From contig CAYMVN010000001.1 of the NCBI GenBank assembly GCA_964394125.1, positions 1 to 43,883 of the forward strand: DNA of 43,883 nt. The letters run 5' to 3'. Source of the DNA: an uncultured Pseudomonadales bacterium (lineage in GTDB: Bacteria; Patescibacteriota; Microgenomatia; UBA1400; PJMF01). Shown here one piece after another: positions 743 to 42,298 of the stretch (position 1 is its first letter; the number at the start of each line of letters is the position of its first letter). The position numbers were made by a program, and so were the translations under genes. The notes beneath the pieces are model-generated. The model searched no databases, was not told where the DNA came from, and saw nothing but the letters and a program-made list of their open reading frames with translations.

Positions 743-745
743 CGC

Positions 746-1720: not shown

Positions 1721-1759
1721 GAGTCGTACTACACTGAGTCTTGTAGTTACGTTATCTAC

Positions 1760-3349: not shown

Positions 3350-3357
3350 GGATAGAC

Positions 3358-17000: not shown

Positions 17001-17724
17001 CGCCTACATTACTGAAACACTCGGCGTAGGGACAAAGATAGTTGTGGGTAACACAACAAGCCTTTCTGATGGAGCACTCGCCTTCACCCCAATTCCTGGT
17101 CAAGAGAATGTTCTCAAGATTCAACCGTCTGGCAGTGGAAGTATCGAACTGTTGGCTGGTGTCATGACTATTCAAAATGGCCAAGTGACGATAACTGGAG
17201 ACATCACTGCAACGGGCAAAGTAAAAGCCTCAACGTTATTGACGAACCTCATTCAACCTGCCGACTTTGGAAATCCATTCCAGGTGCAAGTAGCAGGTAT
17301 CTCTACCGGTTCAGGAGAGCTTAAAAAATCACGATTCGAGATTATTAACGAGCTCGGTACCCCAGTGGCAACTATTTCAGCTGAAGGTAAAGCTAACTTT
17401 GCTGGTGGAATCGGCGTTGGTAGCCAAGAGCTGAGTGTCCCAACCGTCTCAAGTGGCAGCGCAGTTACCGTCACCGCCGAAAAATCTTCTGGAAAGTCAA
17501 AAATTCAGGCGGGAACACACGAAATTACCATCGAGTCTGAGCATATTTCAAGCGACTCGCTCATCTACGTTACCCCACTGGGCAGCACCCAGAATCAAGT
17601 GTTGTACGTAAAGTCACAAACAGCCGAAGATCCTGCTACTTCAGAACACGAAGGCAAGTTTGTTGTTGGTTTTGATGCTGCCGTTTCCAGTGATGTGTCG
17701 TTCAATTGGTGGATTGTTAACTAG
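8041..17724 (+). CDS. Giant (3227 aa) single-pass surface fibre protein: XerD-type core-binding (SAM-like) domain, TM helix, tail-fibre-like repeat ectodomain
   Basis: A single uninterrupted ORF; all overlapping ORFs are short shadows. Residues ~88-172 (nt 8302..8556) read YVLALTSGDCSNATIRNYRSDINQFLHF...LTKQKVLEFIRAQKSAQLSAATVKRKLVSLAQFGLWLESIGAL. This fits the tyrosine-recombinase N-terminal core-binding pattern, but no catalytic domain follows. The TM helix is YANLAMILLFLLSFSYFGYKQLF (8821..8889). The ectodomain starts LSFQGRLTD...NPIT....LWDSG....V..DGIFS..LG........VWLEVTV..E.LSPRQ.I.SV.YAL. It then carries 18 GN(V/I/L)(G/S)IGT...KL.V.G motifs, and ends in a coiled region and beta-rich terminus (...FNWWIVN). 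Confidence 0.9.
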   Translation: MTAQEVYLTSVNKLFSTFLLSLDLTAEEKKHAEALFVQLLSRLAANASTASVAEFLNGQKGAAREISAAYASVQQFVGSVPLSQSKILLHEYVLALTSGDCSNATIRNYRSDINQFLHFTNEDQLAKTLTKQKVLEFIRAQKSAQLSAATVKRKLVSLAQFGLWLESIGALPLGSCSWLVELSHTAHDTVTEPAKQPVEEKLPVHKKRLRFPLASLAPALFAQKHERKTNSGQEYSEQIKRNVRLLQSTLQKRSSSFFSRYANLAMILLFLLSFSYFGYKQLFITPDKPLAFPSTLTRPNRTLSFQGRLTDTAQNPITAATNFRFKLFDSGPSTGSGTQLWDSGVCSVTPDQDGIFSTGLGSDCGSEIASSVFSENANVWLEVTVASETLSPRQSIKSVAYALNSETLQGFPPADPATANTVLVMNSSGEVVLGSATPKIKASSTSLTLEGTTLTMQATSGSNGNVVLDPDGTGIVIAKDYIAAPGATLSATYAGGTALVTKGGPTGTADIQQWQNSAGTALSVVNASGNFGIGTSSPGMKLDVVGGTARVVSSGTPLATSYDLSIQNPASSQTWLEILNNGGTNKGAFFGMWNDSFQLWNYQAGDISFYTNTSASNGTERLRIENNGNIAVGTTGTANFLLDVNGTVGPHVDSSYNLGSLTYAWANIYGDALYQNGYQVCDSSGNCPSAGYWRQLNGALSPMNDTVDLLIGASATTSAKFAFMNVNSGTPTASISGNLAVAVPTGANPATTYTALNGGSINFQTSVGGPSGASSGLFIKNDGNIGIGSVSPAAKLDVAGTIRNNSYTAFGADTGSAQWGLNSARGINVIHTAAPAAGTGSVGIRSEITRTSDGTGSTINAAYYGRPLINASGLTVDENATYYAANGSITAGTMTNQYGLYVAGLSGATNNYAVYTASTTKSYFGGNVGIGTTNPANFKLQLTGDIGPTTTATYSLGSATYKWNNIYGTTIYQGANQVCDTSGNCGSGSIWANTANVYHPYNANATVADLVIGGNSTASADFRVTGLGNGSTDLAGYTYGRRFLDIDSTNYYVEPGNTTTAGAFASNVGIGTTTPDSLLHAYSNTTGASTVHGKFENISATGRAQAVVSSGTYPNNFFALMTHGASFASDNYLSDSTNDAGLGVLLGQGSQMTKFAVGTYNSTPLSFFTGNTERMYISSTGNVGIGTTNPSSFKLELAGNVGPTTTATYDLGSASLKWNNIYGTTIYQGANQVCDLGGNCGLGLWENNSNVFNPKNQYASIVDLVVGGNSTASADFRVTGLGNGSTDLAGYTYGRRFTDIDATGYYVEPGNVTTAGLFAGNIGVGTTGPLATVDIRGNVYLNDGSAGAPAFSFNADTNTGFYRQASDLISFVANGQNALNVDGSTGTGRLMVGNGYPVSRLQLNDDTGTSASGLTLGSTSPISLYRSAASMLAITGGNVGIGETNPANFKLQLLGDIGPTTTATYNLGSATYKWNNIYGTTIYQGANQVCDMSNNCGTTLWENNSNVINPRNQYAAVTDLIIGGNSTASADFRVTGLGNGSTDLAGYTYGRRFLDIDSTGYYVEPGNIFTAGLFAGNVGVGTTNADTTLKVYNSSAPTFQVATSTTANVGLYYEGSGNDLYLGGDSSQDGNLYIKNLSGTTTIALNAGSATHSYINSGANVGIGTTNPANFKLQVAGGVGPTVTATYDLGSATYKWNNIYGTTIYQGANQVCDTSNNCGTPLWENNSNAFNPRNEYASIADIVVGGNSTASADFRVTGLGNGSTNLAGYTYGRRFLDIDSTGYYVEPGNTSIAGAFAGNVGIGTTNPAGLLEVKSPNANYTFTTSSTSGYTTNFLMDDTGLRIGHNSSSRDIEFQTSSTTRMTILGGGNVGIGTTSPNNLFEVAASDTGNTFLSSASVRVTNTNSAAFGRMQSLTFGTAGNSSYIGAGIAGIYDNWNVTNGAGHTLAFFTKDSSIEATPSEKMRINKSGNLGIGTTSPAAKIEVYGATEGIRITGSGTTGDSSTAYLTFYDSNGSTRRGFVGDGATSNDDIHLKADTGDIHIGDSSSGTVLNLSGGNVSIGTTSSTLGKLTVMGTKVLDGAQVFTQSVADDTAYSSSPIAGIRFITKYNTAGGLAGLGGINVGKENTTDGDYASYLTLTTRTNGSSIAERLRIDSSGNVSIGTTSSAAKLYTYDAADNTIITAGYSGARTNPLFLATTTTSSVAPTGFDFYSWYSAWGPVSGGIRGSSGSGTWESQIYGTQKLVLNAGGYSSSTADIMIDLAGNVGIGTTSPGSKLDVAGDIRLSSGSSINSAGSDVRIHTNKTDDTAYEYFSFYSGASRQGIILYDGAWTGCSNVTDEFCLKAENGNHLAFYSESGKDIRLIPGGNVGIGTTSTVAKLTVYSSLTGSGASETISSNTSLSTAATGDYMGYWLNMNAITASSGTQAPTMYGQYNTISRSLTDNSSGQSTVYGTYSSASQLALTNNVGSKVTYGGYFTATGNSLGNSFAIGVAADATGTDTSYGVYTGTVTGTDPYSIYTSGTTKSYFGGNVGIGVTGPAQKLDVAGTIQTDLVASTNSYALCHENNVTLTNQDIKDCSGTPAADYMEFYSVDTNVTPGDLLAPSTTYITTNDGDQITKLTKTNQAYQRTTIGIASVPENAGDFNSIGRNIKDEDNPFPVALNGRVLVKFSSINGTIQPGDYVTSSDIPGVAMKATNAGWVIGKAIASYANSDTSAVGTVMVFVNSGWYDPSIQFNSEGELVINSAGQDTYTVSPVAGSPLQNIVAGATAVFGKIRAGSATITSITTEQLNISGQSIQELIASMIDERIAGSALVASQSAQLESVVATSASISGTLSASRTSLGELLAETATISGTLTTTELNVTGSSRLAQITAQQAVLERLKANTAELFDATISGTLYAENIANLDAKIATAIQEPTFIDALTGNIPSPPPAANPLTVYDTVATAGYTPVNPEFFAENEGISLVNGDILLDSAAVFVRKYLQVNGLAYITETLGVGTKIVVGNTTSLSDGALAFTPIPGQENVLKIQPSGSGSIELLAGVMTIQNGQVTITGDITATGKVKASTLLTNLIQPADFGNPFQVQVAGISTGSGELKKSRFEIINELGTPVATISAEGKANFAGGIGVGSQELSVPTVSSGSAVTVTAEKSSGKSKIQAGTHEITIESEHISSDSLIYVTPLGSTQNQVLYVKSQTAEDPATSEHEGKFVVGFDAAVSSDVSFNWWIVN
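10816..13455 (+). repeat. Four in-frame ~441-444-bp cassettes inside the giant gene (10816..11259, 11581..12021, 12349..12789, 13015..13455)
   Basis: Each cassette encodes GNVGIGTTNPANFKLQLTGDIGPTTTATY.LGSATYKWNNIYGTTIYQGANQVCD.S.NCG...NP.N.YA...D...GGNSTASADFRVTGLGNGSTDLAGYTYGRRFLDIDSTGYYVEPGN...AG.FAGNVG.GTT. Start-to-start spacings are 765, 768 and 666 bp, with non-homologous spacers. Identical DNA runs of 20-29 nt are shared, e.g. acaactatctaccagggtgcgaaccaagt and ggcaactccactgccagtgctgacttta. A diverged fifth copy lies at ~9922..10260. Confidence 0.9.
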
Positions 17725-18831: not shown

Positions 18832-19266
18832 TTATTTAGAACAGACGCAGAAGTATCCGCTTGCGTATGTGCCTGTTGCACCACAGCGCTCTGCTGAGTT
18901 TTTATCCTCATCACCTGCATCTGAATTAAGCTTCGCACAGGCGTAGAAAGTATCTGCTGTACCAGCATAGTCACAGCTAGTCTCTGATAAGAGCTTGCCA
19001 TCGACATAATTTTTTAAGTATGCCGTAGTATCCAGTGAGGTACAGGTGGTAAGACTCGCTCCCACTGGGTAACTCTGATTATCGTTGTAATACATCCGCA
19101 ATGCTGTTTTCAGCTGATTCATATTACTTTTTAATTTTGCATCGTACCCTCTATCACGGACACCCGCCATGTTAGCCAGTAAGAACGCCGCCAAAATTGC
19201 AATGACAGAGATAACAACCAAGAGTTCAATTAACGTAAAGCCATTGAGTTGCGTTATTTTTTTCAT
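18832..19266 (-). CDS. Type IV pilin-like / pseudopilin protein
   Basis: The N-terminus MKKITQLNGFTLIELLVVISVIAILAAF carries the prepilin peptidase motif (G|FTLIE) and a hydrophobic helix. It then reads RDRGYDAKLKSNMNQLKTALRMYYNDNQSYP (GspG/PilA-like), followed by a Cys-containing C-terminal head. Confidence 0.85.
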   Translation of the reverse strand: MKKITQLNGFTLIELLVVISVIAILAAFLLANMAGVRDRGYDAKLKSNMNQLKTALRMYYNDNQSYPVGASLTTCTSLDTTAYLKNYVDGKLLSETSCDYAGTADTFYACAKLNSDAGDEDKNSAERCGATGTYASGYFCVCSK

Positions 19267-19272
19267 AAAATA

Positions 19273-19830
19273 TTATTCGGCTTGTACTGTAAGTAATGAT
19301 GTATTTGAGCTATGCACTCCATAATTACAGCCCTTATATGGTGGAGAACCTCCTGTACAAGATATGGTGCCATACTTACCCAGGTCACCAGTGTCAGTGA
19401 CAGCTACTGCACTGTCACTTGTGTTCTCAAGCCGAGCATAAAGCTGATACCCCTTACCATCTGACTGATAAAAGTATAGATGCCCTTTAGGATCTGTTGG
19501 TAATTGGGACATGTAAGTATTAGTCTCGTCAATTACAAACTGCTCACCCCACTCACAAGACTCAGTAGCTTTGCCCTGTGCATCGATAGTTCCACAACCT
19601 TTAATGGTCTTATTATCTCCCACCAAAGGATACTTACCATAATCGTTATAATACAACTCCAATGCTCTCGAAATGCTCTCCAAGTCATTCTTCCGCTTGG
19701 CGTCCCGGGCTTTTATCTGTATTGAGGTATAGCTTCCCAAGCCCACAGCCACAAGGATCGCAATGATCGACATCGCTACCAAGAGTTCGATCAGTGTAAA
19801 GCCGGTTCTTCTCCTCTGTTTTATTTCCAT
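19273..19830 (-). CDS. Type IV pilin-like / pseudopilin protein
   Basis: MEIKQRRRTGFTLIELLVAMSIIAILVAVGL, then ARDAKRKNDLESISRALELYYNDYGKYP, with four Cys residues in the head domain. Confidence 0.85.
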   Translation of the reverse strand: MEIKQRRRTGFTLIELLVAMSIIAILVAVGLGSYTSIQIKARDAKRKNDLESISRALELYYNDYGKYPLVGDNKTIKGCGTIDAQGKATESCEWGEQFVIDETNTYMSQLPTDPKGHLYFYQSDGKGYQLYARLENTSDSAVAVTDTGDLGKYGTISCTGGSPPYKGCNYGVHSSNTSLLTVQAE

Positions 19831-19862
19831 ACGTCCACTATACCATTCTACCGTAGTGTCTG

Positions 19863-20366
19863 CTAATCACCATTTGCGTCAAGTTGTATCCCAACGGCAA
19901 CGCCGTAGGTATACGTAACAACCCCACTCTTGTAGCAACCATTTTCTTCACTGCACCCGAGTTTTTCGATGTCAGGGTCATGTTTGTTATCAAGCACTGC
20001 ATACAAGCGGTACGTTTTGCAAACACCCGAAGCACACTGCGGAAGGTAAAGATAGGGCAGCTTTGTCCGTACATCACAGGGCACTTCTTTCAGACTGTTA
20101 CTGAGTACAGTATTCTGCCCACAGACACTAACAGTACCATTGGTAGGGTGTAACTCAGAAGGATACGTCCCTTTATCATTGTAGTACTCTTCAAGTGCAG
20201 TCGCAATTTTGTGGAGGTCAGCCTTCCGCCGCCCGTCTCTGCCTTTGGCCAAGGAAGGAATGATATTGACTGTTAAGGCAGTAATGATAACGGCAATGAT
20301 CGCGATGACAGCGAGCACTTCAATAAGGGTAAATCCACTACGAGTACTGTTTGAGTGAGGTTTCAT
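19863..20366 (-). CDS. Type IV pilin-like / pseudopilin protein (first gene of the pilin triplet)
   Basis: MKPHSNSTRSGFTLIEVLAVIAIIAVIITAL, then GRDGRRKADLHKIATALEEYYNDKGTYP, followed by a Cys-rich head. Confidence 0.85.
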   Translation of the reverse strand: MKPHSNSTRSGFTLIEVLAVIAIIAVIITALTVNIIPSLAKGRDGRRKADLHKIATALEEYYNDKGTYPSELHPTNGTVSVCGQNTVLSNSLKEVPCDVRTKLPYLYLPQCASGVCKTYRLYAVLDNKHDPDIEKLGCSEENGCYKSGVVTYTYGVAVGIQLDANGD

Positions 20367-26582: not shown

Positions 26583-27308
26583 TTAATCAATCAGCCGCGC
26601 GTAGCGGAAGTATCGTATTGGCGAGTTTAAGTACTTGCAGGTGTACAAGATGAGGTTTGCCGAGTAGTCAGTAATTTGACTCCCCTCGTCTTCTGCATAG
26701 ATTTCATATGTGTACTTTTTTTGTTCGTAGATAATCTCGATGGTATCTCCCGGGTGCGTTTCAGTGAGCGAGTAAAAAGAGTTCCGCTTACCAAAGTCTG
26801 TTTTCCACCACCACTTCCACCCATAGCGATGCGCAGCAATAATGGTTGGTTGTGTTGTATCTCCTGGCCGTCCAAAGTCTGGTACCATCCACGCGCCTTG
26901 TTCAAGCGCTTCATCTGAATTGGTAAGCGCTTGGGCCTGAGTATCCACACCGATAAGGGGAATACGAATTCTTGTTTCTATTGGCAGTGAACGGTCTTGC
27001 ACTCTGACTGGTGCAGGAACTGGTGTTGCGCTTGGGGCAGGTTCAGCAGCAACACTTTCTGGAGCAAGCGCAAAAACCTCGTCTTGTTGCGTATCTGTTG
27101 TTAACCGTGACCAAACTTCTGGAATAACAATACTGCCAATAATAAGTACTGTCGCAACAATGATACTAATGAGCAAAAATTGAGCACAGAGTCGGAGAAC
27201 CCGTGTGAGTGAGTACTTGGAACGTCTTTTTGCACCAACAAGCCGCTTACGAACAAGAGGAAAGTGCGTCTGCAGCAGTGTTCCCTGTGTTTCTAGAGTC
27301 AAGGTCAT
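26583..27308 (-). CDS. Sortase family transpeptidase
   Basis: It has a TM anchor (FLLISIIVATVLIIGSIVI), a catalytic His context (TIIAAHRYG), a Cys context (LILYTCKY, of the TLxTC type), and a downstream Arg (RYFRYARL). The ORF is open to 27347, but the ATG at 27308 (MTLTLETQG) sits 7 nt downstream of an extended -10 box. The upstream 13 codons are AT-rich promoter sequence. Confidence 0.8.
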   Translation of the reverse strand: MTLTLETQGTLLQTHFPLVRKRLVGAKRRSKYSLTRVLRLCAQFLLISIIVATVLIIGSIVIPEVWSRLTTDTQQDEVFALAPESVAAEPAPSATPVPAPVRVQDRSLPIETRIRIPLIGVDTQAQALTNSDEALEQGAWMVPDFGRPGDTTQPTIIAAHRYGWKWWWKTDFGKRNSFYSLTETHPGDTIEIIYEQKKYTYEIYAEDEGSQITDYSANLILYTCKYLNSPIRYFRYARLID

Positions 27309-27315
27309 GTTCTGT

Positions 27316-27344
27316 ATTATATCAATATGTATCAAAATATACAA
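27316..27344 (-). promoter_or_regulatory. Promoter of the sortase-rho operon (TTGTAT-17-TGaTATAAT); predicts a leaderless mRNA
   Basis: The minus-strand reading is TTGTAT(27344..27339)-17 nt-TATAAT(27321..27316), with TG at the extended -10 position. It is followed by ACAGAAC (7 nt) and then ATG at 27308. No SD is possible. Confidence 0.45.
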
Positions 27345-27391
27345 CAATATAGGATACTATTAAGAATGTGTGCAGAAAAAAATAAAAAGAA

Positions 27392-27860: not shown

Positions 27861-30011
27861 ATGCAAGATCGCCATGTTGCTTTTGAGCTTAAAGTCTCCA
27901 AGACGAACACCTACACATCAGAATCCATCGTTCCATTCTTGTCTACTCTCCCCGAGTTGCACAACTACTGGTGGGATCATCTGTTACAACGCTTCGAGCA
28001 CTTGAGTCTGGAAATTCACGTTAAAGATCAACGTGTCTCGTTTGTTTTGTTCTGCCCTGAGCGCACTGCCGACTACACTATTAGTATCCTCACCGCTGCT
28101 TACCCTGATGTACTGGTAGTTCCCCTCACCGACGACCCCTTGTTTACCATCAGTGAAGAAACCAAGCGCGAGTACTCGGTTGGAACAGTCCGACTCTCCA
28201 ATGGCTCTGACTTGCCTCTCAAGACATTCCGCGAGTTCTCACAGAGTGACTCACTGATGCCCCTCTTAGCAACACTTTCGCAGTTGAAGCAGAAAGACCA
28301 TGCGGTTATTCAGTACGTTATTAGCAAAGAAACGGGACTCTTCTCTGCACCTTCTTTGAGTACCACCCCGCATCCGCAACAAGCACTCATCGATCAAAAA
28401 AAGAATCAACAATCCTGTTTGGTATCGATTCGGCTTTTAGTTGGTTCCGCAACAAAACACAGAAGCACTCACCTACTTGAAACGCTCGCTCAAACATTTC
28501 AAGCCATCACTAAAAGTGAGAGTAACTCGCTAGTACTGCACAAGGCATACCTGCTTCCAGAGCAACTGAAACACCGAATTATTGAGCGGTCGTTTGGCTA
28601 CTTTGATGCACACGTTTTTTCTGTAGATGAGCTGGCGACACTCTTCCATCTGCCAACACCCGTTATCGCCAGCATTCCGAACATTGTTTGGGGTCGTAAG
28701 CTCCTTGGTGAACCACCAGAGAACCTACCGATCATCACTCCCGATATGCCTGCAGAGGAGAAAAAGGAAATTAACGCATTTGCACGAACAACCTTCAAAA
28801 ATAGCCCAACTGTATACGGGATTCACCGGTTAGATAGACGCAGACACATGTACGTGATTGGAAAAACGGGTACCGGTAAGTCGACACTACTCGCAAACAT
28901 GGCAATTAGTGATTTGAAGAATAATGAGGGTATGTGCGTCATCGACCCCCACGGCGATTTAGTAGAGACGCTCCTCAACTACATTCCTTCGCATCGCATT
29001 AACGATGTTATCTACTTCGACCCCAGTGATCCTGAGAAAACTGTTCAGATTAACTTGTTTGAAGGTACGAACATTGTGCACCGTGAGCTTATCGCTTCTG
29101 GTATTGTGTCTGTTTTTAAGAAGCTCTACGCCTACTCTTGGGGGCCACGACTTGAGTATATTTTGCGCAATGCGCTGCTCACCTTACTAAAAAGTGAGAC
29201 CGCTCGACTTTCAGATATTATCGAGATGCTCACGAATAAGTCATTCCGCCAGAAGTTAGTTGCGCAGCTTGATGATGATATTCTCAAAAACTTCTGGGAG
29301 CTTGAGTTCGACACCATGCAAGATAAACTCCGTACTGAAGCCATAGCGCCAATTCTTAATAAAGTTGGTCAATTTGTGTCTTCTCCCCTGGTTCGTGACG
29401 TAGTGAACTCGCGCTACAGCTCTTTTAGCATTGAGGAAGCTATGGACACAGGGAAAATTATCCTTGTTAATTTATCACAAGGAAAATTAGGCGAAGATAA
29501 CGCGACACTTCTCGGGGCAATGCTCATTACTAAGATTCAACTTGCAGCGATGGCGCGGGTGCATATTTTAGAAGAAGATCGCAAGGACTTTTACTTGTAC
29601 GTCGATGAGTTCCAGAACTTTGCGACTGAGTCATTTAGTAAGATTCTCTCTGAAGCAAGAAAGTACCGCCTCGACCTTATCCTTGCGAATCAGTACATGG
29701 GGCAGATACCAGAAGACGTGCAGAAAGCCATCTTTGGAAACTGTGGTAGTATCATGAGTTTTGTAACCGGTTCTGAAGATGCCGGTGTTTTGGCTCGTGA
29801 GTTTAACAACCGGTACACCGCTGACGAGCTTGTTTCTTTAGGGAAGCACCAGATCATCAATAAGATAACTATTAACAATATGATCTCTGAGCCATTCCCT
29901 GCTGAGACACTGCCGCTCGCAAAAAGTAACAACAAAAATAAAGATAAAGTTATTAAAGTGAGCCGTGAACGCTATGCTGCAAATAAAAAACCGGCACTAA
30001 ATAAGACTTAG
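27861..30011 (+). CDS. Type IV secretion coupling-protein-like (TraD/VirD4/TraG family) P-loop ATPase with a novel ~330-aa N-terminal domain and no TM anchor
   Basis: Walker A context is YVIGKTGTGKSTLLANMAISDL..GMCVIDPHGDL and Walker B is FYLYVDEFQNF. The TraG/TraD C-terminal pattern reads LSEARKYRLDLILANQYMGQIPEDVQKAIFGNCGSIMSF. I could not see any hydrophobic helix or known domain in the N-terminal third. Confidence 0.7.
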   Translation: MQDRHVAFELKVSKTNTYTSESIVPFLSTLPELHNYWWDHLLQRFEHLSLEIHVKDQRVSFVLFCPERTADYTISILTAAYPDVLVVPLTDDPLFTISEETKREYSVGTVRLSNGSDLPLKTFREFSQSDSLMPLLATLSQLKQKDHAVIQYVISKETGLFSAPSLSTTPHPQQALIDQKKNQQSCLVSIRLLVGSATKHRSTHLLETLAQTFQAITKSESNSLVLHKAYLLPEQLKHRIIERSFGYFDAHVFSVDELATLFHLPTPVIASIPNIVWGRKLLGEPPENLPIITPDMPAEEKKEINAFARTTFKNSPTVYGIHRLDRRRHMYVIGKTGTGKSTLLANMAISDLKNNEGMCVIDPHGDLVETLLNYIPSHRINDVIYFDPSDPEKTVQINLFEGTNIVHRELIASGIVSVFKKLYAYSWGPRLEYILRNALLTLLKSETARLSDIIEMLTNKSFRQKLVAQLDDDILKNFWELEFDTMQDKLRTEAIAPILNKVGQFVSSPLVRDVVNSRYSSFSIEEAMDTGKIILVNLSQGKLGEDNATLLGAMLITKIQLAAMARVHILEEDRKDFYLYVDEFQNFATESFSKILSEARKYRLDLILANQYMGQIPEDVQKAIFGNCGSIMSFVTGSEDAGVLAREFNNRYTADELVSLGKHQIINKITINNMISEPFPAETLPLAKSNNKNKDKVIKVSRERYAANKKPALNKT

Positions 30012-36202: not shown

Positions 36203-37975
36203 ATGAAATACGTGCTGTATTTCTTCCAGAAGCTCTTCCCTGTAACTATAGTACTGTTGACACTCAGCGGAGTTGCCTACGAGTTTTCTACAACGCACCT
36301 ACCACTTGAAACCAAGATTGGTGACATCACTGTAAACTTTCAAGACCCAGAAGAAGCAAAACGGCTGCTCGAAGATCGCTACGCTGAAGTACCACCACAC
36401 ACACTTACAGTTATTGCAGGCAAAAATCAGGTTGCTTCTTCCTCTGCTCAGCTTGGTGCACAGTATGAATACAGAACACTACTGCGTGAGTTTGAAAAAA
36501 TTCAAGCTCGGCCACTCGGTCTTAAGAAAATAGTTCAGAGCACTGTTTTTTTCTTCCAGAAAAAAGAGGTCGCTGTGCCGGTGATATACGACGAAGAAAA
36601 AGTACGTGGCGCACTACTCCACTTAAAAGCCCAAACTGATGTCGTTGCAGTACAGCCAGGTGCAGTTCTGGCAACTTCTGGAGCACCACAGTCACTCAAG
36701 ATGCAGCCAGGTAAAAAGGGACTTGAGTTGCAAGTAGATCGTACACTGCAACAAGTAATGGCGCTACAAAGTGGTTCAAGTGCAGTGATTACTGCTACTG
36801 TTGAAGAGACAGGGAGCGAGCTCACACCTGAACAGGTTGAAGCAGCAAAACAACTCTACACACAGTTCGTCGGTAAAACACTGGTCTTTACTGCTGAGCG
36901 ATTTTCAACCTATATACGAGACAAAGATCTTATTGCGCTCATACAACCCGACGGGAAACTTTCTGAAGAAGCAGTTGTTGCTGAGTTAGCAACCTGGAGA
37001 GAGCGAGTTGAGACACCTCCACAGGAGCCAGTCTTCAAGTACGATGAGCACACACTGGCAGTAAAAGAATTTACGCCGCCAAGAGACGGTAGAAGTATTG
37101 TTTTACCAGAGTTTATGTCTCAGGTATCGCAGTATGTTGCTTCGGTTCTACAAGACGCAGCTGCAAAACCTGCCGAGAAAAAAGTTTCTGCACAAACGTC
37201 ACTGCCGCTTCCACTAGAACTATCAAAACCAAAACAACAGCTTTCCGACACAAACACGCTTGGTATTAGAGAAAGAATTGGTTTTGGAGAAAGTTACTAC
37301 GCACACTCAATTCCTAATAGGATACATAATGTTGCAATTACTGCCGAACGGATCTCGCTCAAACTTATTAAGCCTGGCGAAGAGTTCTCGTTTAATAAAA
37401 CCCTTGGAGATGTTTCTGCAAAGACTGGCTACAGGTCAGCGTATGTTATTAAAAATGGACAGACTGCACTTGGAGATGGCGGCGGGGTGTGTCAGGTTAG
37501 CACCACTCTCTTTCGTTCGGTCTTAAATGCGGGCTTACAAGTGACGAGACGACTCCCCCACAGCTACCGAGTGAGTTACTACGAACTTGATAGTAAGCCA
37601 GGTGTTGACGCAACAGTCTACTCGGGAGAAACAGACTTTAGATTCATGAATGATACACATGACTACATCTTGGTATACACGCATACAGAGAGCAGTAACC
37701 TCTACATGTATGTTGAACTGTATGGAACTTCAGATGGCAGGACAGCAGAAATTACTGACCATAAAACATGGAATAGTCGCCCTCCACTTCCTACACAGTA
37801 CATTCCAGACTCCACTCTTCCAAAGGGAAAGTTGGTGCAAGTGGATTGGTCTGCATCAGGGATTGATGCCAGCTTCAAAAATGTGATCAAAGATAAAAAT
37901 GGCGTAGTCATTCGTGAAGACACCTACGTTTCAAAGTACAGACCTTGGGCTGCAAAGTACTTGCAAGGTGTGTAA
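36203..37975 (+). CDS. VanW family protein with a G5-like C-terminal domain
   Basis: It has an N-terminal TM helix. The VanW core reads FSFNKTLGDVSAKTGYRSAYVI......GDGGGVCQVSTTLFRSVLNAGLQVTRRLPHSYRVSYY. The C-terminal region (LPKGKLVQVDWSASGIDASF..VIKDKNGVVIREDTYVSKYRP) is G5-like. Confidence 0.85.
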   Translation: MKYVLYFFQKLFPVTIVLLTLSGVAYEFSTTHLPLETKIGDITVNFQDPEEAKRLLEDRYAEVPPHTLTVIAGKNQVASSSAQLGAQYEYRTLLREFEKIQARPLGLKKIVQSTVFFFQKKEVAVPVIYDEEKVRGALLHLKAQTDVVAVQPGAVLATSGAPQSLKMQPGKKGLELQVDRTLQQVMALQSGSSAVITATVEETGSELTPEQVEAAKQLYTQFVGKTLVFTAERFSTYIRDKDLIALIQPDGKLSEEAVVAELATWRERVETPPQEPVFKYDEHTLAVKEFTPPRDGRSIVLPEFMSQVSQYVASVLQDAAAKPAEKKVSAQTSLPLPLELSKPKQQLSDTNTLGIRERIGFGESYYAHSIPNRIHNVAITAERISLKLIKPGEEFSFNKTLGDVSAKTGYRSAYVIKNGQTALGDGGGVCQVSTTLFRSVLNAGLQVTRRLPHSYRVSYYELDSKPGVDATVYSGETDFRFMNDTHDYILVYTHTESSNLYMYVELYGTSDGRTAEITDHKTWNSRPPLPTQYIPDSTLPKGKLVQVDWSASGIDASFKNVIKDKNGVVIREDTYVSKYRPWAAKYLQGV

Positions 37976-37985
37976 CAATGCGAGT

Positions 37986-39056
37986 GTGAGAAAACTACTG
38001 GTAGTTATCATTTTAGTGGCTGCATTCGTTGTACAGCCGGCACAGGTATCTGCAAAAGAACTACTTATTTCTTGTTCTGTGGCAGCTGGCTGCACGCTGA
38101 CACCAGAAAACACCGCACTTTTTACAGAAAGCGCTATCGTTCCTGGATTTGAAACTACAGAGCAGTTAGTTTTTACAAACCAAAGTGAAACAGAGGGCTG
38201 CAAGGTGCGCGCGCAGCTTATTCCCAGTGAGACAACGCTCACCCCACTTGCAGAAGCTCTGCAACTGTCAATACATGCTTCTCAGTACCCTACAACGGTA
38301 CTGAAAAAGACATCGCTGAGTACACTGTTCACTAACCCAAGTGCCCACCTACTTTTTATCAGCAATCCTAGTAGCACCGTTACTTCGGACTGGACACTTA
38401 CCTTCCCCAAGAGTGCCGAGAACTCACTGCAAGGAGCAACAACTTCCTTTATCGTGCAGTTTAGTATTCAGTGTGCAGACACACTGCGCGCCCCAATTGA
38501 ACCATCACCAAGCCCTACGCAACTACCAGTAACCCCGCCACCATCACCAACGAGTGCACCTTGTGCTACTCACATTCAGCCACCAAAAAAAATATACTAT
38601 TCTGTGCACGAGAAAAAGATTGTTTTTTCTTGGGATGCAGTGCCTGATGCGGAGTCGTACTTACTCTCGCTGCAAACACAGACCAGTAAAAAAAAGTTCG
38701 AGAATATTCAAGTTAAAAACACAACACAGTGGAGTATTTTAAATCCACAAGATACAGAGGAGCTGCAAGGTACCGTCCGTGCAGTACACGGCTGTGCTGT
38801 TAGTGATGCGGTGACTGCAGTAGTTCCACCACAAAAAAAAACGACACCCAGCCCATTGCCAAAGCAAGAAAAATCACAAGGAAGTGTGCTGGGTACACAG
38901 ACTACAGATAAACTTTCCCTCAAGCAAGCTGAGTCAAAAAAGTATGACAGAGCGACACGAAAAGTTTTTATTTTTAGTTATTTTGGAGTTGTTGGTCTAC
39001 TTTTAGTGTGCCTCTTTGTGTGGTTATTCATTACAAAACGTAAGAAAAATTCCTAA
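37986..39056 (+). CDS. Membrane-anchored protein with a TasA-fold-like N-terminal domain, P/T linker, Fn3-like domain and C-terminal TM anchor
   Basis: The ORF is open from 37914, but that stretch overlaps the VanW 3' end. An in-frame GTG at 37986 gives MRKLLVVIILVAAFVVQPAQVSA|KE, a clean signal peptide. TasA-type hallmarks are LFTESAIVPGFETTEQLVFTNQSE and NSLQGATTSFIVQFSIQC; compare NEIQSDALTFGVQFDLTQ in 39340..39984. The Fn3-like segment reads IVFSWDAVPDAESYLLSL. The C-terminus is VFIFSYFGVVGLLLVCLFVWLFITKRKKNS. Confidence 0.55.
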   Translation: MRKLLVVIILVAAFVVQPAQVSAKELLISCSVAAGCTLTPENTALFTESAIVPGFETTEQLVFTNQSETEGCKVRAQLIPSETTLTPLAEALQLSIHASQYPTTVLKKTSLSTLFTNPSAHLLFISNPSSTVTSDWTLTFPKSAENSLQGATTSFIVQFSIQCADTLRAPIEPSPSPTQLPVTPPPSPTSAPCATHIQPPKKIYYSVHEKKIVFSWDAVPDAESYLLSLQTQTSKKKFENIQVKNTTQWSILNPQDTEELQGTVRAVHGCAVSDAVTAVVPPQKKTTPSPLPKQEKSQGSVLGTQTTDKLSLKQAESKKYDRATRKVFIFSYFGVVGLLLVCLFVWLFITKRKKNS

Positions 39057-39092
39057 ACTGCTCTGTTTTGCTTTACTGTGATGTCTTTAGAG

Positions 39093-39120
39093 TTGATTGA
39101 CCAGCCCTTGGTATTATAAG
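39093..39120 (+). promoter_or_regulatory. Candidate promoter for the TasA/SipW cluster (TTGATT-16-TATAAG)
   Basis: TTGATT at 39093..39098 and TATAAG at 39115..39120, with TGgTATTAT as an overlapping extended -10 alternative. This predicts a leader of more than 200 nt of AT-rich sequence before the SD (AAGGA) of 39340. Confidence 0.25.
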
Positions 39121-39339
39121 TATACTTCTAAGGTAAGTTTTGATGCGACATATAGTTATTTATTATTTAAGTATAAATAAACATCAAAAAACTACAAAAA
39201 ACATCTAAATATGCGGATAAAACCCATACTTAGTACACAGTTGGTGCGTTTATTAGTCACATGAAGTGTGCATAAAAGATGGAATAGTAGATTACTATAG
39301 GTACTAGTACAAGTTATAAACATACTAAAAGGAAAAACT

Positions 39340-39984
39340 ATGAAGAAAAAAGTCCTGCTCTTTCTTCTTGTCGCAGCAGCACTCCTCGGAGGAGGCTACG
39401 CAGTAACACAAGCGTTGTTCAGTGATACTGAGACATCGGGAACAAATACCATTACCGCTGGCACATTAGACATGACAGTTGATGGCAATAACGGCACTGC
39501 ATTTGAGAACATTTCGGTGAGTAATGTTGGTGCAGATGGCACCGTTTCTGGACAAAAGGAATGGGTGATTAATAACACCGGCACTGTTCCAGGTACACTC
39601 ACTTTCAAGCTAACAAATATCACTAACACAGAAAATGACTGTAATGAGCCTGAAGCACTTGTTGATACAACGTGTAGTAATCCTGGCGCAGGTGAAGGTG
39701 AGCTAGGAGATGCAATCACGACAGGCGTACAGCTCGATGCAGATGGTGCTGGTACGAACAGTGCATATCAGACGGTCGTCAGCTCAAACTTGGCAACCGA
39801 TAGTCAGTCACAGTATGCGTCTCAGTGGAACACGAACGCTGGAGCACTCGTTATACCTGCAGGTGGCTCAGTAAAAGTTAAGATGGACTGGGCAAACGAT
39901 CCAGCATCGTATGGAAATGAGATCCAAAGTGATGCGCTCACTTTTGGGGTTCAATTTGATTTAACTCAGGTTACCCCCTCATAG
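39340..39984 (+). CDS. TasA/camelysin-like fibre subunit with a SipW-dependent-type signal peptide
   Basis: AAGGA lies 8 nt upstream of the ATG. MKKKVLLFLLVAAALLGGGYAVTQALFSDTETSGTNTITAGTLDM is the characteristic A-x-F-S-D-x-E-x-S-x-x-N-x-x-x-A-G-T-L-D motif. It also has INNTGTVPGTLTFKLTN and the C-terminal NEIQSDALTFGVQFDLTQ. Confidence 0.8.
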   Translation: MKKKVLLFLLVAAALLGGGYAVTQALFSDTETSGTNTITAGTLDMTVDGNNGTAFENISVSNVGADGTVSGQKEWVINNTGTVPGTLTFKLTNITNTENDCNEPEALVDTTCSNPGAGEGELGDAITTGVQLDADGAGTNSAYQTVVSSNLATDSQSQYASQWNTNAGALVIPAGGSVKVKMDWANDPASYGNEIQSDALTFGVQFDLTQVTPS

Positions 39985-40059
39985 TAGAGGCATAACTTGA
40001 AGTAGTGCATAAGAGGAGGGGCTTCCCTCCTCTTTGCGTGAAGGAGAAAGCAAAAACGT

Positions 40060-40554
40060 ATGAAGACACTTCTGAACAGAGTACAGATTATTTTTTGGCT
40101 GGTGTACATACCGCTGATCATCGTGATGATCATTACAGGCACTTCAGCACGCGCGCAGTCTCCCCTTCCCTTCAGGAGTTTTATCGTTACAACTGGCTCA
40201 ATGATTCCAGCTATTATGCCTGGCGATATCGTTTTTGTGACGCCAAAAAGCTCGTACTCTGTTCATGATATTATCACCTTTAAGAGTAATGACGGACATA
40301 CAATTACCCACAGAATTATCGAGAAACGAGCCAGTACAGAGACTTCTTTTACCACCAAAGGTGATAATAATAAGACACCGGATACTGAAGGGTTACCACA
40401 AAAAAGTATCATTGGGAAAGTTCGATACACAGTTCCAAAGATCGGTAGACTACTGTTATATCTAAGTAAGCCAACCAGTCTATTCTTTTTGCTTACATTA
40501 CCTCTGTTAGTACTTATTGCAGGCGAGGTATTCAAAGAAAAAAAGCAACCATAA
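40060..40554 (+). CDS. Signal peptidase I, SipW/archaeal-eukaryotic (S26B) type
   Basis: It has a TM anchor, then VTTGSMIPAIMPGDIVFV (catalytic Ser box), ITHRII (His box), TKGDNNKTPD, and a C-terminal TM helix. This matches the ER-type Ser-His signal peptidase pattern of SipW. Confidence 0.85.
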   Translation: MKTLLNRVQIIFWLVYIPLIIVMIITGTSARAQSPLPFRSFIVTTGSMIPAIMPGDIVFVTPKSSYSVHDIITFKSNDGHTITHRIIEKRASTETSFTTKGDNNKTPDTEGLPQKSIIGKVRYTVPKIGRLLLYLSKPTSLFFLLTLPLLVLIAGEVFKEKKQP

Positions 40555-40557
40555 GCT

Positions 40558-41136
40558 GTGAGAACGTTTGCTCATTTGTTTCTAGTATTGGTCTTTTTTC
40601 TAGCTGTCTTTTCAGCTTACTCACAGTTTACTGATGCTGATCTTTCCGACCAGCAGCTTGTCGGTACACACTCATTGACGGCAACAACACTCGACTTCAG
40701 TAGTAGTGACTCTGCAACAGAGACAAACAAGTCGATGCTCTTCTCTATCGTAGGAATGACAAAACACGGCTTTCAAATTGGCTCAGTACGTATAAAAAAA
40801 GTTGGTGAGCTGCCTACCCCATTTACGATCTCAGTTCAACAAACTGGTGGAGATACAGTTCTCTGTCAGGCACTAACGCTCGTCGTTGCCAAAGACTGGA
40901 ACAAGTTAGCTGAAGGAAGTTTGTTAGCGGTGGAGACAAGTGATAGCGTTTCTAGCGAGTATCCGTACACCGACTATATTTTTGCAGTTTCTCTTCCTCA
41001 AAGTTCGCCAGAGTTCATGAACAAAACCTGTGCATTTACCATTACCTTTCAAACTAAAAAATCTGAAACGGTTGCGTTTAGTGATACTGAAGTTGTTTCT
41101 AATACAGTCAGCACAGGAACATGGACGGAAGAATAA
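40558..41136 (+). CDS. Small secreted TasA-fold-like protein; candidate minor or accessory subunit (TapA-position analogue)
   Basis: A GTG start lies 4 nt after the sipW-like stop. The signal peptide is MRTFAHLFLVLVFFLAVFSAYSQ, then FTDADLSDQQLVGTHSLTATTLDF, a degenerate F-x-D...S...N/T...TLD motif. The C-terminal FMNKTCAFTITFQTKK resembles the terminal TasA-type strand. Confidence 0.5.
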   Translation: MRTFAHLFLVLVFFLAVFSAYSQFTDADLSDQQLVGTHSLTATTLDFSSSDSATETNKSMLFSIVGMTKHGFQIGSVRIKKVGELPTPFTISVQQTGGDTVLCQALTLVVAKDWNKLAEGSLLAVETSDSVSSEYPYTDYIFAVSLPQSSPEFMNKTCAFTITFQTKKSETVAFSDTEVVSNTVSTGTWTEE

Positions 41137-41156
41137 TTAAATGAGAGAATGAATCT

Positions 41157-41825
41157 GTGATAAAAAAAAATCGCTCATACTTGGGTGCAGTCAAAAGTAT
41201 TTTTTTTATTACTGCTGTTTCAGTAATTGGGTACATGACAACCCAAGCACTCTTTGTAGATCGTGAAAGTTCTGAGGAAAATCAATTTGTTGTTGGGACA
41301 CTTGACATGAACGTTACTGGAGAGAGCTCCACAGTAGCGGACACGCTGACTGTAACAGGTGTTGGTGCGCAGAACATCACTAATGGCGGTAAAAAGTGGA
41401 TTGTACATAATGTCGGAACACTTCCTGGAGAACTGCTCTTTGAAGTAAAAAATATTCAGAATCTTGAGAACGACTGCAACGAGCCCGAAGCACTTGTCGA
41501 CACAACGTGTGGCACTCCAGGAGTTCACGAGGGTGAACTGGGGCAACACATAACAACAAGTGTTAGTGTTGAAAGTGGCTCAACAACAACTCCCCTTTTT
41601 TCTAGCACATTAGCTAACTCAGCCGAAGGTAGTTACTTGACACTGTGGAAACAGCATTCAGAAAAGGTGCGTATTCCACCAGGAGAAAGCCGAACAATTC
41701 AGCTCAGTTGGGCAACTGACCAGAATACGTTTGAAAATGAAGTGCAGAGCGATAGTGTTACTTTTGAGACACTTTTTCAACTCAGACAAGTCATCCCAGA
41801 TATAGCTCCAAACGCCACTCCATGA
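41157..41825 (+). CDS. TasA/camelysin-like fibre subunit, paralogue 2
   Basis: A GTG start gives MIKKNRSYLGAVKSIFFITAVSVIGYMTTQALFVDRESSEENQFVVGTLDM. It shares HNVGTLPGELLFEVKN, ENDCNEPEALVDTTC..PG..EGELG..ITT and NEVQSDSVTFETLFQLRQ with 39340..39984. Confidence 0.8.
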   Translation: MIKKNRSYLGAVKSIFFITAVSVIGYMTTQALFVDRESSEENQFVVGTLDMNVTGESSTVADTLTVTGVGAQNITNGGKKWIVHNVGTLPGELLFEVKNIQNLENDCNEPEALVDTTCGTPGVHEGELGQHITTSVSVESGSTTTPLFSSTLANSAEGSYLTLWKQHSEKVRIPPGESRTIQLSWATDQNTFENEVQSDSVTFETLFQLRQVIPDIAPNATP

Positions 41826-42298
41826 AACAAGCACTCTTTATTCTCATATTCGCAAGTATAACTGCTGTTTTATCGTACCAGTTTGTTATTTTTCTCAGAA
41901 AGACGTCACCGTATAAAAGTTACGTTGTTCAGTCTGGCTCAATGGAGCCTAGTATCCGGGTTGGTGATCTCATCATCATTCATGCTGAGCCAACCTACAG
42001 TAAAACAGACGTCATTACCTTTAAAGATACTACTCAGCATACAATCACACACCGTGTGCTCGAGGTTTCTAGTGACTCCCCTCCTCGTTTAACAACTAAA
42101 GGTGATGCAAATCAAAGTGCAGACACTGAAGTGATCAAGGTTGCACAAGTGATTGGTAAAGTTGTCTTGGTTGTTCCTAAGGTTGGGTACGCAATTCAGT
42201 TTATTCGCACACCGTGGGGTTTTATTGCAACAATTCTTGCCCCCGCAATTCTCATACTCTCTGATGAAATAAAATCGCTCTATCGCTCACTCAGGTGA
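41822..42298 (+). CDS. Signal peptidase I, SipW/archaeal-eukaryotic (S26B) type, paralogue 2
   Basis: The start overlaps the upstream stop (ATGA). It has VVQSGSMEPSIRVGDLIII, ITHRVL, TKGDANQSAD, and N- and C-terminal TM helices. Confidence 0.85.
   Translation: MKQALFILIFASITAVLSYQFVIFLRKTSPYKSYVVQSGSMEPSIRVGDLIIIHAEPTYSKTDVITFKDTTQHTITHRVLEVSSDSPPRLTTKGDANQSADTEVIKVAQVIGKVVLVVPKVGYAIQFIRTPWGFIATILAPAILILSDEIKSLYRSLR

Follow-up and report, generated by a model that had tools for sequence, protein, structure and literature searches.

A conserved TasA-like gene cluster with SipW-type signal peptidases in Patescibacteria, and a putative donor-strand mimic in its small paralogue

Introduction

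In Bacillus subtilis TasA polymerises via residues 28-38, which directly follow the SipW cut and insert into the next subunit; the monomer is self-complemented by residues 48-61, which are displaced by the incoming donor strand, and its own donor strand extends only once its groove has been complemented (PMC9674648). TapA has a complete fold and donates a TasA-like N-terminus in initiation only (PMC10151520); nucleation in the manner of TapA requires that a strand be donated (PMC9674648, PMC10151520). TasA is far more abundant than TapA and SipW (PMC10151520). Here we analyse a cluster of six genes within a 43,883-nt stretch of contig CAYMVN010000001.1, the whole of which is called the window throughout, and suggest from sequence profiles and structural models that it probably encodes a TasA-type fibre system processed by SipW-type peptidases. 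The cluster belongs to a family of loci with the invariant core major subunit, peptidase, small protein, and the C-terminal strand of the small protein appears to mimic the N-terminal donor strand of the major subunit.

Two archaeal systems are also close. The subunits of the AbpA/AbpB bundling pili of Pyrobaculum calidifontis have the TasA fold and are joined by donor-strand insertion, and AbpB is a multi-domain protein proposed to donate the first strand, with its distal domains as adhesins (PMC9245690). The haloarchaeal tafi system (tafA-G) comprises a major subunit, the homologous minor subunit TafE and TafC with a subunit-like N-domain and an adhesin C-domain, and its filament depends on TafD, a signal peptidase I dedicated to the system (bioRxiv 10.1101/2023.03.06.531322). 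In Patescibacteria, PF12389 homologues were reported by Wang et al. 2022 (PMC9245690). Beyond that remark on distribution, our literature search found no paper on TasA-type systems in bacteria of the candidate phyla radiation (CPR), and none analysing the operon or the family of the small protein. The novelty claimed for the cluster in the original prediction was overstated, since TasA homologues in Patescibacteria were already known (PMC9245690) and some relatives are automatically named TasA family by NCBI.

The six open reading frames (ORFs) lie where they had been placed, all on the + strand:

37986..39056, +: anchor, 356 aa, with a GTG start set by orthologue alignment
39340..39984, +: sub1, 214 aa, putatively the major subunit of the fibre
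40060..40554, +: pep1, SipW/Sec11-type (S26B) signal peptidase I of lineage A, 164 aa
40558..41136, +: small protein, a TasA-like paralogue, 192 aa
41157..41825, +: sub2, a second TasA-like subunit, 222 aa
41822..42298, +: pep2, SipW/Sec11-type signal peptidase I of lineage B, 158 aa

Bacteria of the CPR/Patescibacteria are believed to lead a life attached to other cells, and to our knowledge type IV pili are the sole surface filaments studied in them so far. A conserved second filament system would be a concrete and testable candidate for attachment or matrix formation in these organisms.

Like the tapA-sipW-tasA operon, the cluster places the gene of a dedicated Ser-His peptidase of the Sec11/SipW type beside those of its putative substrates. 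Its major subunit has a SipW-type signal peptide, the removal of which would expose the donor strand as the new N-terminus, and it encodes what would be a low-abundance accessory protein with a donor-like N-terminus and a complete fold. However, the order is accessory-peptidase-major in B. subtilis and major-peptidase-accessory in the window, and the core of TapA is an unrelated V-set Ig/macroglobulin-like domain, whereas the small protein is a paralogue of the TasA-like subunits, presumably completed by a C-terminal donor-mimic strand. Neither the small protein nor the anchor matches a TapA-type Pfam or NCBIfam model, a result of these model searches and not of a direct comparison with the TapA sequence. 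Unlike the B. subtilis operon, the CPR clusters usually hold two peptidases and optionally a membrane-anchored, apparently acceptor-only paralogue, and their subunit has a CPR-specific Cys loop. Unlike Bacillus SipW, the two peptidases of the window, pep1 and pep2, reach 81 and 84 bits on the SipW equivalog model NF046067, below its cut-off of 190.

Compared by layout, the major subunit, TafE and TafC of the tafi system parallel sub1, sub2 and the long relatives of the small protein described below, and TafD parallels the peptidases. Unlike in the CPR cluster, the tafi proteins have Tat signal peptides, TafD has four transmembrane segments and an extra domain, and a donor-mimic strand acting in cis is not described. 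AbpB resembles the same long relatives of the small protein, but the Abp operon has no dedicated peptidase and belongs to archaeal hyperthermophiles, and its relationship to the CPR cluster is visible only by structure or profile comparison.

Results

A conserved core

We analysed 85 distinct loci, namely 80 GTDB species representatives, four metagenomes and the window. The same genes recur in the same order in these loci, so that the cluster is far from a chance assembly and its co-conservation in relatives is established. Nearly all the loci are in Patescibacteria-type metagenome-assembled genomes (MAGs), in varied genomic contexts. Sub1 itself has 122 detectable homologues; those with organism names are from Pacebacteria, Woesebacteria, Shapirobacteria or ‘Patescibacteria group’. 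The window is assigned to the CPR on the basis of such homologue names and of features of the monoderm type. Many sub1 relatives carry a precomputed PF12389 match, and some are automatically named ‘TasA family protein’ or ‘SipW-dependent-type signal peptide-containing protein’ by NCBI. The gene orders are distributed as follows:

sub-pep-small-pep: 38 loci
sub-pep-small-sub-pep (the clade of the window): 20 loci
sub-pep-small: 17 loci
contiguous sub-pep-small core in total: 79 of 85 loci

Four of the six loci without a contiguous core are cut by contig ends. The invariant core is thus major subunit, peptidase and small protein, usually followed by a second peptidase. This second peptidase comes after the small protein and is not tied to sub2, because sub-pep-small-pep with a single subunit is common. 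A subunit of the sub2 type is found only in the 20 five-gene loci and in 3 variant architectures among the 85, and sub2 is a clade-specific addition.

Of the 80 species-representative MAGs that have the cluster, about 35 bear the titles ‘uncultured Gammaproteobacteria/Pseudomonadales’, ‘Methylococcaceae’ or ‘Limisphaerales’. Yet in gene order they agree with MAGs labelled Pacebacteria/Microgenomates, to which their proteins are up to 79% identical, and the organism labels of these records look unreliable.

Four TasA-like proteins

Sub1 passes the Pfam model PF12389 (Peptidase_M73, TasA/camelysin) with 24.4 bits against a gathering threshold of 22.5, and the NCBIfam model TIGR04088 of the SipW-dependent-type signal peptide with 23.8 bits against a cut-off of 19. 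Sub2, a paralogue with 43% identity to sub1 (E 8e-63), scores 17.7 bits on PF12389, below the gathering threshold, and has no NCBIfam match, yet it carries the same signal motif by alignment. Both predicted SipW-type N-terminal motifs, TQALFSDTETSGTNTITAGTLDM in sub1 and TQALFVDRESSEENQFVVGTLDM in sub2, were found. The window copies of the small protein and the anchor have no PF12389 match, although the N-termini of long relatives of the small family score 22.7-35.8 bits on this model.

Since their own PF12389 scores are below threshold or absent, sub2, the small protein and the anchor are tied to the TasA family only through profile-profile homology and, for the small family, through these long relatives. 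In hhalign comparisons the small profile aligns with the subunit profile at 96.5% (E 1e-9), and the N-domain of the anchor aligns at 95.8% with both the subunit profile (E 6.5e-9) and the small profile (E 6.9e-9), against 0.4% (E 0.16) for the control, peptidase against subunit. As this comparison links all four, the claim of four TasA-fold proteins is borne out at the level of homology.

The link of sub1 to TasA itself needed Pfam, structure comparison and hhalign, because sequence searches of the PDB found no TasA; a single-sequence phmmer search with sub1 gave only weak antibody light-chain noise. The AlphaFold2 (AF2) model of sub1 has a predicted local distance difference test score (pLDDT) of 84. 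The TasA fibre 8aur_A heads its matches in the PDB (probability 1.00, E 1.5e-3, TM-score 0.41/0.38, root-mean-square deviation 8.5), and the next ones are the donor-strand filaments Sulfolobus 0406 thread, CanA and CfaB. The sub1 family profile aligns with B. subtilis TasA (the sequence used is identical to residues 28-261 of 8aur_A) at 83.8%, E 8e-6. In this alignment T-Q-A/LFSD of sub1 falls on T-W-A/AFND of TasA, so that the predicted cleavage site coincides with the experimentally defined A27/A28, and the motif T-x-A/xF.D...GTLD aligns too. The assignment to a TasA-like, SipW-type system made in the original prediction thus holds for the peptidase, subunit-family and signal-peptide models and for the top structural match, 8aur, while the TM-score is modest.

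The same cannot be said of the terminal strand N/E-x-Q-x5-F-x3-F-x3-Q ascribed to all four proteins, which in its strict form is confined to sub1 (aa 194-210) and sub2 (aa 195-211). In the anchor and the small protein it is neither literal nor terminal: that of the anchor, ENSLQGATTSFIVQFSIQ (aa 145-163), is a close variant and ends the N-domain rather than the protein, and the small protein has the degenerate form NKTCAFTITFQ (aa 155-165), followed by one further strand. Profile alignment shows this last strand to be homologous across the four proteins. The features of the two subunits are:

sub1, SipW-type signal peptide with predicted cleavage T-Q-A/LFSD after Ala25
39415-39474, +: sub1 donor-strand segment, aa 26-45
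39634-39675, +: sub1 conserved Cys loop, NDCNEPEALVDTTC
39916-39969, +: sub1 final strand
41250-41309, +: sub2 donor segment, LFVDRESSEENQFVVGTLDM

Sub1 contains no His residue at all and is therefore not a camelysin-type His-liganded zinc protease; a metalloprotease function of sub1 is ruled out on this ground. The gene of sub2 lies downstream of the candidate attenuator hairpin described below, and sub2 may be an accessory, minor or adaptor subunit.

A Cys-Cys loop of the form N-[DG]-C-N-E-P-E-x-x-V-D-T-T-C is invariant in all the major subunits of this lineage, sub2 included. It lies outside the profile stretch to which B. subtilis TasA aligns, and probably represents an insertion stapled by a disulfide.

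The small protein and its C-terminal strand

No Pfam model exists for the small family, whose members are all named ‘hypothetical’; an exhaustive HMMER search gave 1,093 cluster representatives. With the present analysis a large family of hypothetical proteins gains a hypothesis of function. Its conserved N-terminal motif is T-D-A-D-L...V..N.F.ATTLDFS, the invariant Ala of which aligns with the cleavage-site Ala of the subunits. Two Cys residues are also conserved, together with a C-terminal tail GF.....L.N.V.SG.W. In the window the following elements are found:

small protein, predicted cleavage T-D-A/DLSD after Ala27
40639-40698, +: N-terminal donor-type segment, aa 28-47
41020-41052, +: core-ending strand
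41074-41124, +: extra C-terminal strand or tail, AFSDTEVVSNTVSTGTW, aa 173-189

In the AF2 model of the small protein (pLDDT 84) residues 26-47 are disordered, strand 157-166 corresponds to the last strand of the subunits, and an extra strand, 177-186, lies inside a block of mean pLDDT of about 95. The top Foldseek matches of this model are engineered donor-strand-complemented (dsc) pilins, namely dsc-CsuA/B 6fm5, dsc-CfaE 2hb0/3vac, the C-terminally extended FimA 6s09 and dsc-EcpA 3qs3, with TM-scores of 0.35-0.44; TasA is not among the top 50 structure matches. On TIGR04088 the N-terminus of the small protein gives no match, and the C-terminal tail, residues 173-189, gives a sub-threshold match of 15.6 bits.

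The sequence of this tail copies the donor strand of the major subunit lineage by lineage:

window: sub donor FSDTETSGTN, small tail FSDTEVVSN
L039: sub donor FTDKK, small tail KFKK
L070: sub donor FTADR, small tail IFAER
L076: sub donor FTAIR, small tail FSALR

A locus-wise covariation test was adopted because a donor-strand hidden Markov model (HMM) gave modest enrichment. Similarity within the same locus was compared with that in permuted locus pairings over 2000 permutations, counting those that reach the observed value:

sub donor against small tail: z 7.4, 0 of 2000
small N-terminus against small tail: z 7.1, 0 of 2000
sub donor against small N-terminus: z 6.4, 0 of 2000
control, sub donor against small internal 101-118: z 0.8, 435 of 2000
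control, sub donor against small internal 61-78: z -0.7, 1531 of 2000

In the five-gene loci the tail resembles the donor of sub1 rather than that of sub2 in 15 of 19 cases. The tail of the small protein thus appears, by its sequence, to be a mimic of the N-terminal donor strand of sub1.

Some 41 of the best 150 family representatives are longer proteins of 270-940 aa, in which the complete module, the extra strand included, is N-terminal to other domains. LTD was found in 10 of the 10 long forms tested, and several add Fn3, Big_13 or CBM96. Because the strand is internal there, it can act only in cis. One long form fills the same operon slot, with the order sub-pep-[module+LTD]-anchor. Functionally the small protein resembles TapA, with a donor-like, covarying N-terminus and a fold that is completed, in the model, by the extra strand, and it, rather than the anchor protein, is the likely TapA-like initiator or tip.

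The anchor

The database gene call starts the anchor at an upstream GTG, 37914, while orthologue alignment favours GTG 37986. Its parts are:

37986-38054, +: classical signal peptide, ...AQVSA/KE, of AxA type
38418-38474, +: last strand of the N-domain
38490-38564, +: Pro-rich linker
about 38565-38825, +: Fn3-like module
38883-38900, +: conserved VLG.Q motif
38964-39032, +: C-terminal transmembrane helix, followed by a basic tail

The N-domain is Cys-rich and TasA-like, and its homology to the subunits covers the body and the last strand but starts after the donor region; no donor-strand or SipW motif was found in the profile alignment of 18 orthologues. These were taken from syntenic loci, since a word-indexed search with the anchor gave one weak fn3 match. 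The Fn3-like spacer of the original prediction is supported through them: 11 of the 18 match PF00041 fn3 (best 3.7e-11), whereas the window copy itself has no Pfam match, fn3 included, at E<=0.1. A gene of the anchor class was detected in 18 of the 85 loci, upstream of the cluster in the clade of the window and downstream in others, and in one distant locus directly downstream of a tip-type gene. We suggest that the anchor is probably the membrane-bound base of the fibre.

The VLG.Q motif stands 21 residues before the transmembrane helix in the window copy and about 20-35 across the orthologues. A tail of [VI]LG.x, a spacer of about 10-35 aa, a transmembrane helix and a basic end closes the anchor family (window 38883-39056). 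The same [VI]LG tail ends unrelated LTD-domain, Pro/Thr-rich surface proteins that adjoin the cluster in Shapirobacteria-type loci, and it is therefore not a feature specific to the TasA-like system. The loci with this tail are:

L035: 5852-6589
L036: 5869-6594
L042: 5836-6582
L046: 560-1687
L049: 2705-3865
L052: 5866-6585
L057: 5451-6581

It may be a lineage-wide anchoring or sorting signal other than LPXTG. The anchor was also considered as an LPXTG/sortase substrate and rejected: it scores 13.0 bits on TIGR01167 against a cut-off of 15.9, only the helix and the tail are matched, and the motif is the wrong one.

The two signal peptidases

Both peptidases pass TIGR02228 (sigpep_I_arch, cut-off 51.85), pep1 with 99.4 bits and pep2 with 94.8 bits. 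Pep2 aligns to human SEC11C (E 4.3e-5) and SEC11A with the SGSMEP and HR boxes conserved, and the assignment to ER/archaeal-type S26B peptidases that keep Ser and His is confirmed. The predicted boxes are present as well, TGSMIP, ITHRI and KGDNNKTPD in pep1 and SGSMEP, ITHRV and KGDANQSAD in pep2:

40192-40209, +: pep1 Ser box
40303-40317, +: pep1 His box
40357-40383, +: pep1 Asp box
41933-41950, +: pep2 Ser box
42044-42058, +: pep2 His box
42098-42124, +: pep2 Asp box

Pep1 has N- and C-terminal transmembrane segments. The start of pep2 overlaps the sub2 stop codon by 4 bp. Catalytic Ser, His and Asp are kept in 83 of 83 homologues of lineage A; in lineage B Ser is kept in 59 and His in 60 of 61, and both Asp residues are conserved in both lineages. 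Judged by these residues, both peptidases are catalytically intact. They belong by sequence to the same subfamily as SipW and would work in a SipW-like manner, but are not SipW orthologues by the NCBI criterion.

Pep1 and pep2 are paralogues with 36% identity (E 3e-32), and two peptidases of one locus share 32% identity. The nearest neighbour of a peptidase in another locus holds the same position in 138 of 143 cases, which marks A and B as ancient positional lineages and not as a recent duplicate. That two SipW-type lineages are kept side by side raises the question of their substrate specificity.

Three single ORFs of about 321-324 aa (P0311, P0317 and P0319) have a SipW-type peptidase at the N-terminus and a small-family module at the C-terminus. 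They are either Rosetta-stone fusions or read-through gene calls, the latter being conceivable because the median spacing between the peptidase and small genes is 0 nt.

Expression signals

Two elements of the cluster may bear on its expression:

40012..40033, +: GC-rich hairpin AGAGGAGGG-GCTT-CCCTCCTCT with a perfect 9-bp stem, directly downstream of sub1
39097..39126, +: sigma-70-like promoter candidate TTGACC-18-TATACT, a 10/12 match to consensus only

The hairpin of the window has a minimum free energy of -24.4 kcal/mol (z -3.4). A hairpin follows the sub gene in 64 of 83 loci, with a median z of -4.6, against 4 of 76 after the small gene, the control position; its stems vary in sequence between loci. 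As a candidate attenuator within the operon, or stabiliser of the mRNA, it would give a high ratio of the subunit to the accessory proteins. Its position fits such a ratio, as found for TasA relative to TapA and SipW (PMC10151520). The promoter candidate lies in the 283-bp AT-rich spacer upstream of sub1, and promoter-like sites in the region are not enriched over shuffles.

Discussion

The cluster is a real and conserved system, for which the general idea of the original prediction holds and its assignment of roles does not. We favour, with moderate confidence, the view that it encodes a chaperone-free TasA-type surface fibre, built by donor-strand exchange and specialised in CPR/Patescibacteria, with roles of the proteins as proposed in the following scheme, which draws on sequence, models and the analogy with TasA.

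Step 1: The peptidases would cut sub1, sub2 and the small protein after the invariant Ala (T-x-A/), exposing the N-terminal donor strand, as SipW does for TasA. The conserved hairpin would lead to over-expression of sub1 relative to the downstream genes.

Step 2: The groove of the small protein would be filled in cis by the extra C-terminal mimic of the sub1 donor, so that the fold is complete and the N-terminal donor constitutively free. The small protein could then donate the first strand, nucleate the fibre and remain at its distal end, in which case the job of TapA would be done by a different protein. In other lineages the small-type module with LTD, Fn3 or CBM domains might serve as a tip adhesin.

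Step 3: Sub1 would polymerise head-to-tail, its donor strand LFSDTETSGTN... fitting into the groove of the subunit that follows. An accessory part would fall to sub2 and to the second peptidase.

Step 4: The acceptor domain of the anchor would take the last donor strand, and the Pro-rich stalk, the Fn3 module and the transmembrane helix would tie the base of the fibre to the membrane.

Taken jointly, the specific roles given here to the small protein and the anchor are tentative, and we hold them with less than even confidence. A more far-reaching suggestion, which we offer as possible but rather doubtful, is that the small family represents a natural, conserved pilin complemented by a donor strand in cis, a constitutive initiator and tip. 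Together with the acceptor-only anchor it would give a tip-first, base-anchored and chaperone-free pilus in monoderm CPR bacteria. If this is true, such a pilus, working independently of type IV pili, could be a second attachment organelle through which cells contact one another or a host.

Several points weigh against the favoured scheme. The fibre is deduced here from genes and monomer models. A 57-sequence subunit profile found no matches in the PDB by sequence, and the small-family profile compared with TasA directly gave 1.5%, which is not significant. Structural similarity is modest (TM-score of 0.41 to TasA and 0.35-0.44 to the dsc-pilins) and involves generic beta-sandwich topologies. 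An AF2 model of a monomer is prone to pack any spare strand in cis, irrespective of the biology. The permutation z-scores ignore phylogenetic non-independence, and the donor-strand HMM scores at least 5 bits on 15% of the small tails against 0.9%, a signal that is weak because the register of the tail is shifted by one residue; judged by sequence, the mimicry is clear mainly as lineage-specific covariation. With the anchor in 18 of 85 loci, the base-anchoring step is either dispensable, encoded elsewhere or wrong. Finally, the scheme leaves the roles of sub2 and the second peptidase unexplained.

The main alternative, which we regard as unlikely, is that the C-terminal strand of the small protein is a temporary intramolecular chaperone displaced by the sub1 donor, the small protein being an acceptor or adaptor at the base or between sub1 and sub2. 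The tail mimics the sub1 donor specifically, as a stand-in would, and being one residue shorter than the true donor between the F and N anchor positions it could be exchangeable; the TasA monomer is likewise self-complemented, by residues 48-61 that are displaced on assembly (PMC9674648). However, in the long forms the strand runs straight into a linker and large domains, which makes displacement sterically awkward. It is also placed with very high model confidence, and TapA is a precedent for a complete fold that acts as a donor only.

Returning to the in-cis complemented small protein as donor, one has to weigh it against the roles of the original prediction, namely a tandem duplication of a subunit and peptidase module, with one peptidase dedicated to each subunit and the anchored Fn3 protein as a TapA-like nucleator. 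Sub1 and sub2 as well as pep1 and pep2 are indeed paralogue pairs, each subunit gene of the window is followed by a peptidase gene, and the anchor is homologous to the subunits. We nevertheless find this improbable. The 38 sub-pep-small-pep loci with a single subunit untie the second peptidase from sub2, and lineages A and B are ancient, as the 138 of 143 shared positions and the 32% identity within a locus indicate. The anchor lacks a donor-type N-terminal segment and was not detected in most loci, so that the small protein is the better analogue of TapA.

It is still less probable that there is no fibre, and that these TasA/camelysin-like proteins are secreted monomers of a matrix, coat or protease type (Peptidase_M73) which need a dedicated peptidase for an unusual cleavage site. 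The Pfam family is named a metallopeptidase, and in JGI records the names ‘spore coat-associated protein N’ and ‘ribosomally synthesized peptide with SipW-like signal peptide’ are given to some relatives. LepB-type cleavage is incompatible with the Phe at P2' of TasA (PMC10269814), and no polymer has been seen so far. Sub1, without His, cannot be a His-liganded zinc protease, however, and the three-way covariation of the donor segments includes a C-terminal one that no signal peptidase would process, which argues for a strand-groove interaction. The best structural matches are donor-strand filaments, and a major subunit with its attenuator, minor subunits and an anchor make up the layout of a pilus operon.

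Finally, it is very unlikely that the covariation among the N-termini of sub and small and the small tail stems from shared recognition by co-evolving peptidases (through P' side specificity or a C-terminal peptidase-binding decoy) instead of binding to a beta-sandwich groove: the covarying residues begin at P1'-P6' of the predicted cleavage sites, peptidase-small gene fusions occur and two peptidase lineages co-evolve with the system, but in the model the tail is a high-confidence beta-strand integral to the domain instead of a free peptide, it comes after the folded part of the protein, a place in which no role of a membrane signal peptidase is known, and the equivalent TasA residues 28-38 are the donor strand.

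For the favoured donor-strand-exchange fibre, two further comparisons are of use. The engineered dsc-pilins 6fm5, 2hb0, 6s09 and 3qs3 have the same topology as the modelled small protein, in which an Ig-like pilin core leads through a short linker to a copy, at the C-terminus, of the N-terminal donor strand of the neighbour. Unlike it, they are laboratory constructs of the diderm chaperone-usher system and are not homologous, whereas the arrangement of the small protein would be natural and conserved. Sortase pili share the logic of tip, shaft and base with a membrane- or wall-proximal base, but are held together by isopeptide bonds and not by non-covalent strand exchange, and the CPR anchor has neither LPXTG nor a pilin motif.

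A key open question about TasA fibres is how nucleation, orientation and anchoring are achieved without a chaperone-usher machine. The operon would offer a compact natural solution, with a paralogue completed by a donor mimic, versions of it with tip adhesins, and an acceptor-only membrane anchor, and its four small proteins can be tested in vitro.

Other genes of the window

Upstream of the anchor lies one more gene of interest:

36203..37975, +: VanW/PG_binding_4 cell-wall-associated protein (Pfam VanW 141 bits, PG_binding_4 43.6 bits)

The gap between this gene and that of the anchor is 10 nt, and the pairing is kept in 7 loci, in the subclade of the window only. The gene is possibly a co-transcribed neighbour outside the conserved core, and its position suggests a cell-wall-linked partner of the anchor. 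Downstream of the cluster a ValS gene continues past the end of the window. No matches were obtained when the window was scanned with Rfam and for tRNAs.

The TasA-like fibre would be an additional surface system beside type IV pilus components, and not the sole one, because the window also encodes three pilin-like genes and a sortase:

18832-20366, -: three consecutive type IV pilin-like genes with the N_methyl motif, one also with T2SSG
26583-27347, -: protein with a sortase domain (PF04203, 33 bits)

None of the proteins of the cluster was recognised as an LPXTG substrate. The remaining genes that we note are:

53-6383, +: run of five secreted proteins with almost no Pfam matches (Big_13 only)
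8041-17724, +: giant ORF, 3227 aa, with no obvious signal peptide
27861-30011, +: TraG/VirD4/HerA-like coupling ATPase (DUF87, TrwB_AAD_bind, TraG-D_C)

Two of the five secreted proteins end in ...AGDYSTPIVYVAVPGY and ...ASGYYENYVTYTATANF, and two others have a C-terminal transmembrane helix. This run resembles surface-complex loci of the WxL/WxLIP type. Just downstream of the TasA-like cluster in locus L086 (7182-9258) lie a WxLIP_PGBD gene and the gene of a protein whose tail is similar.

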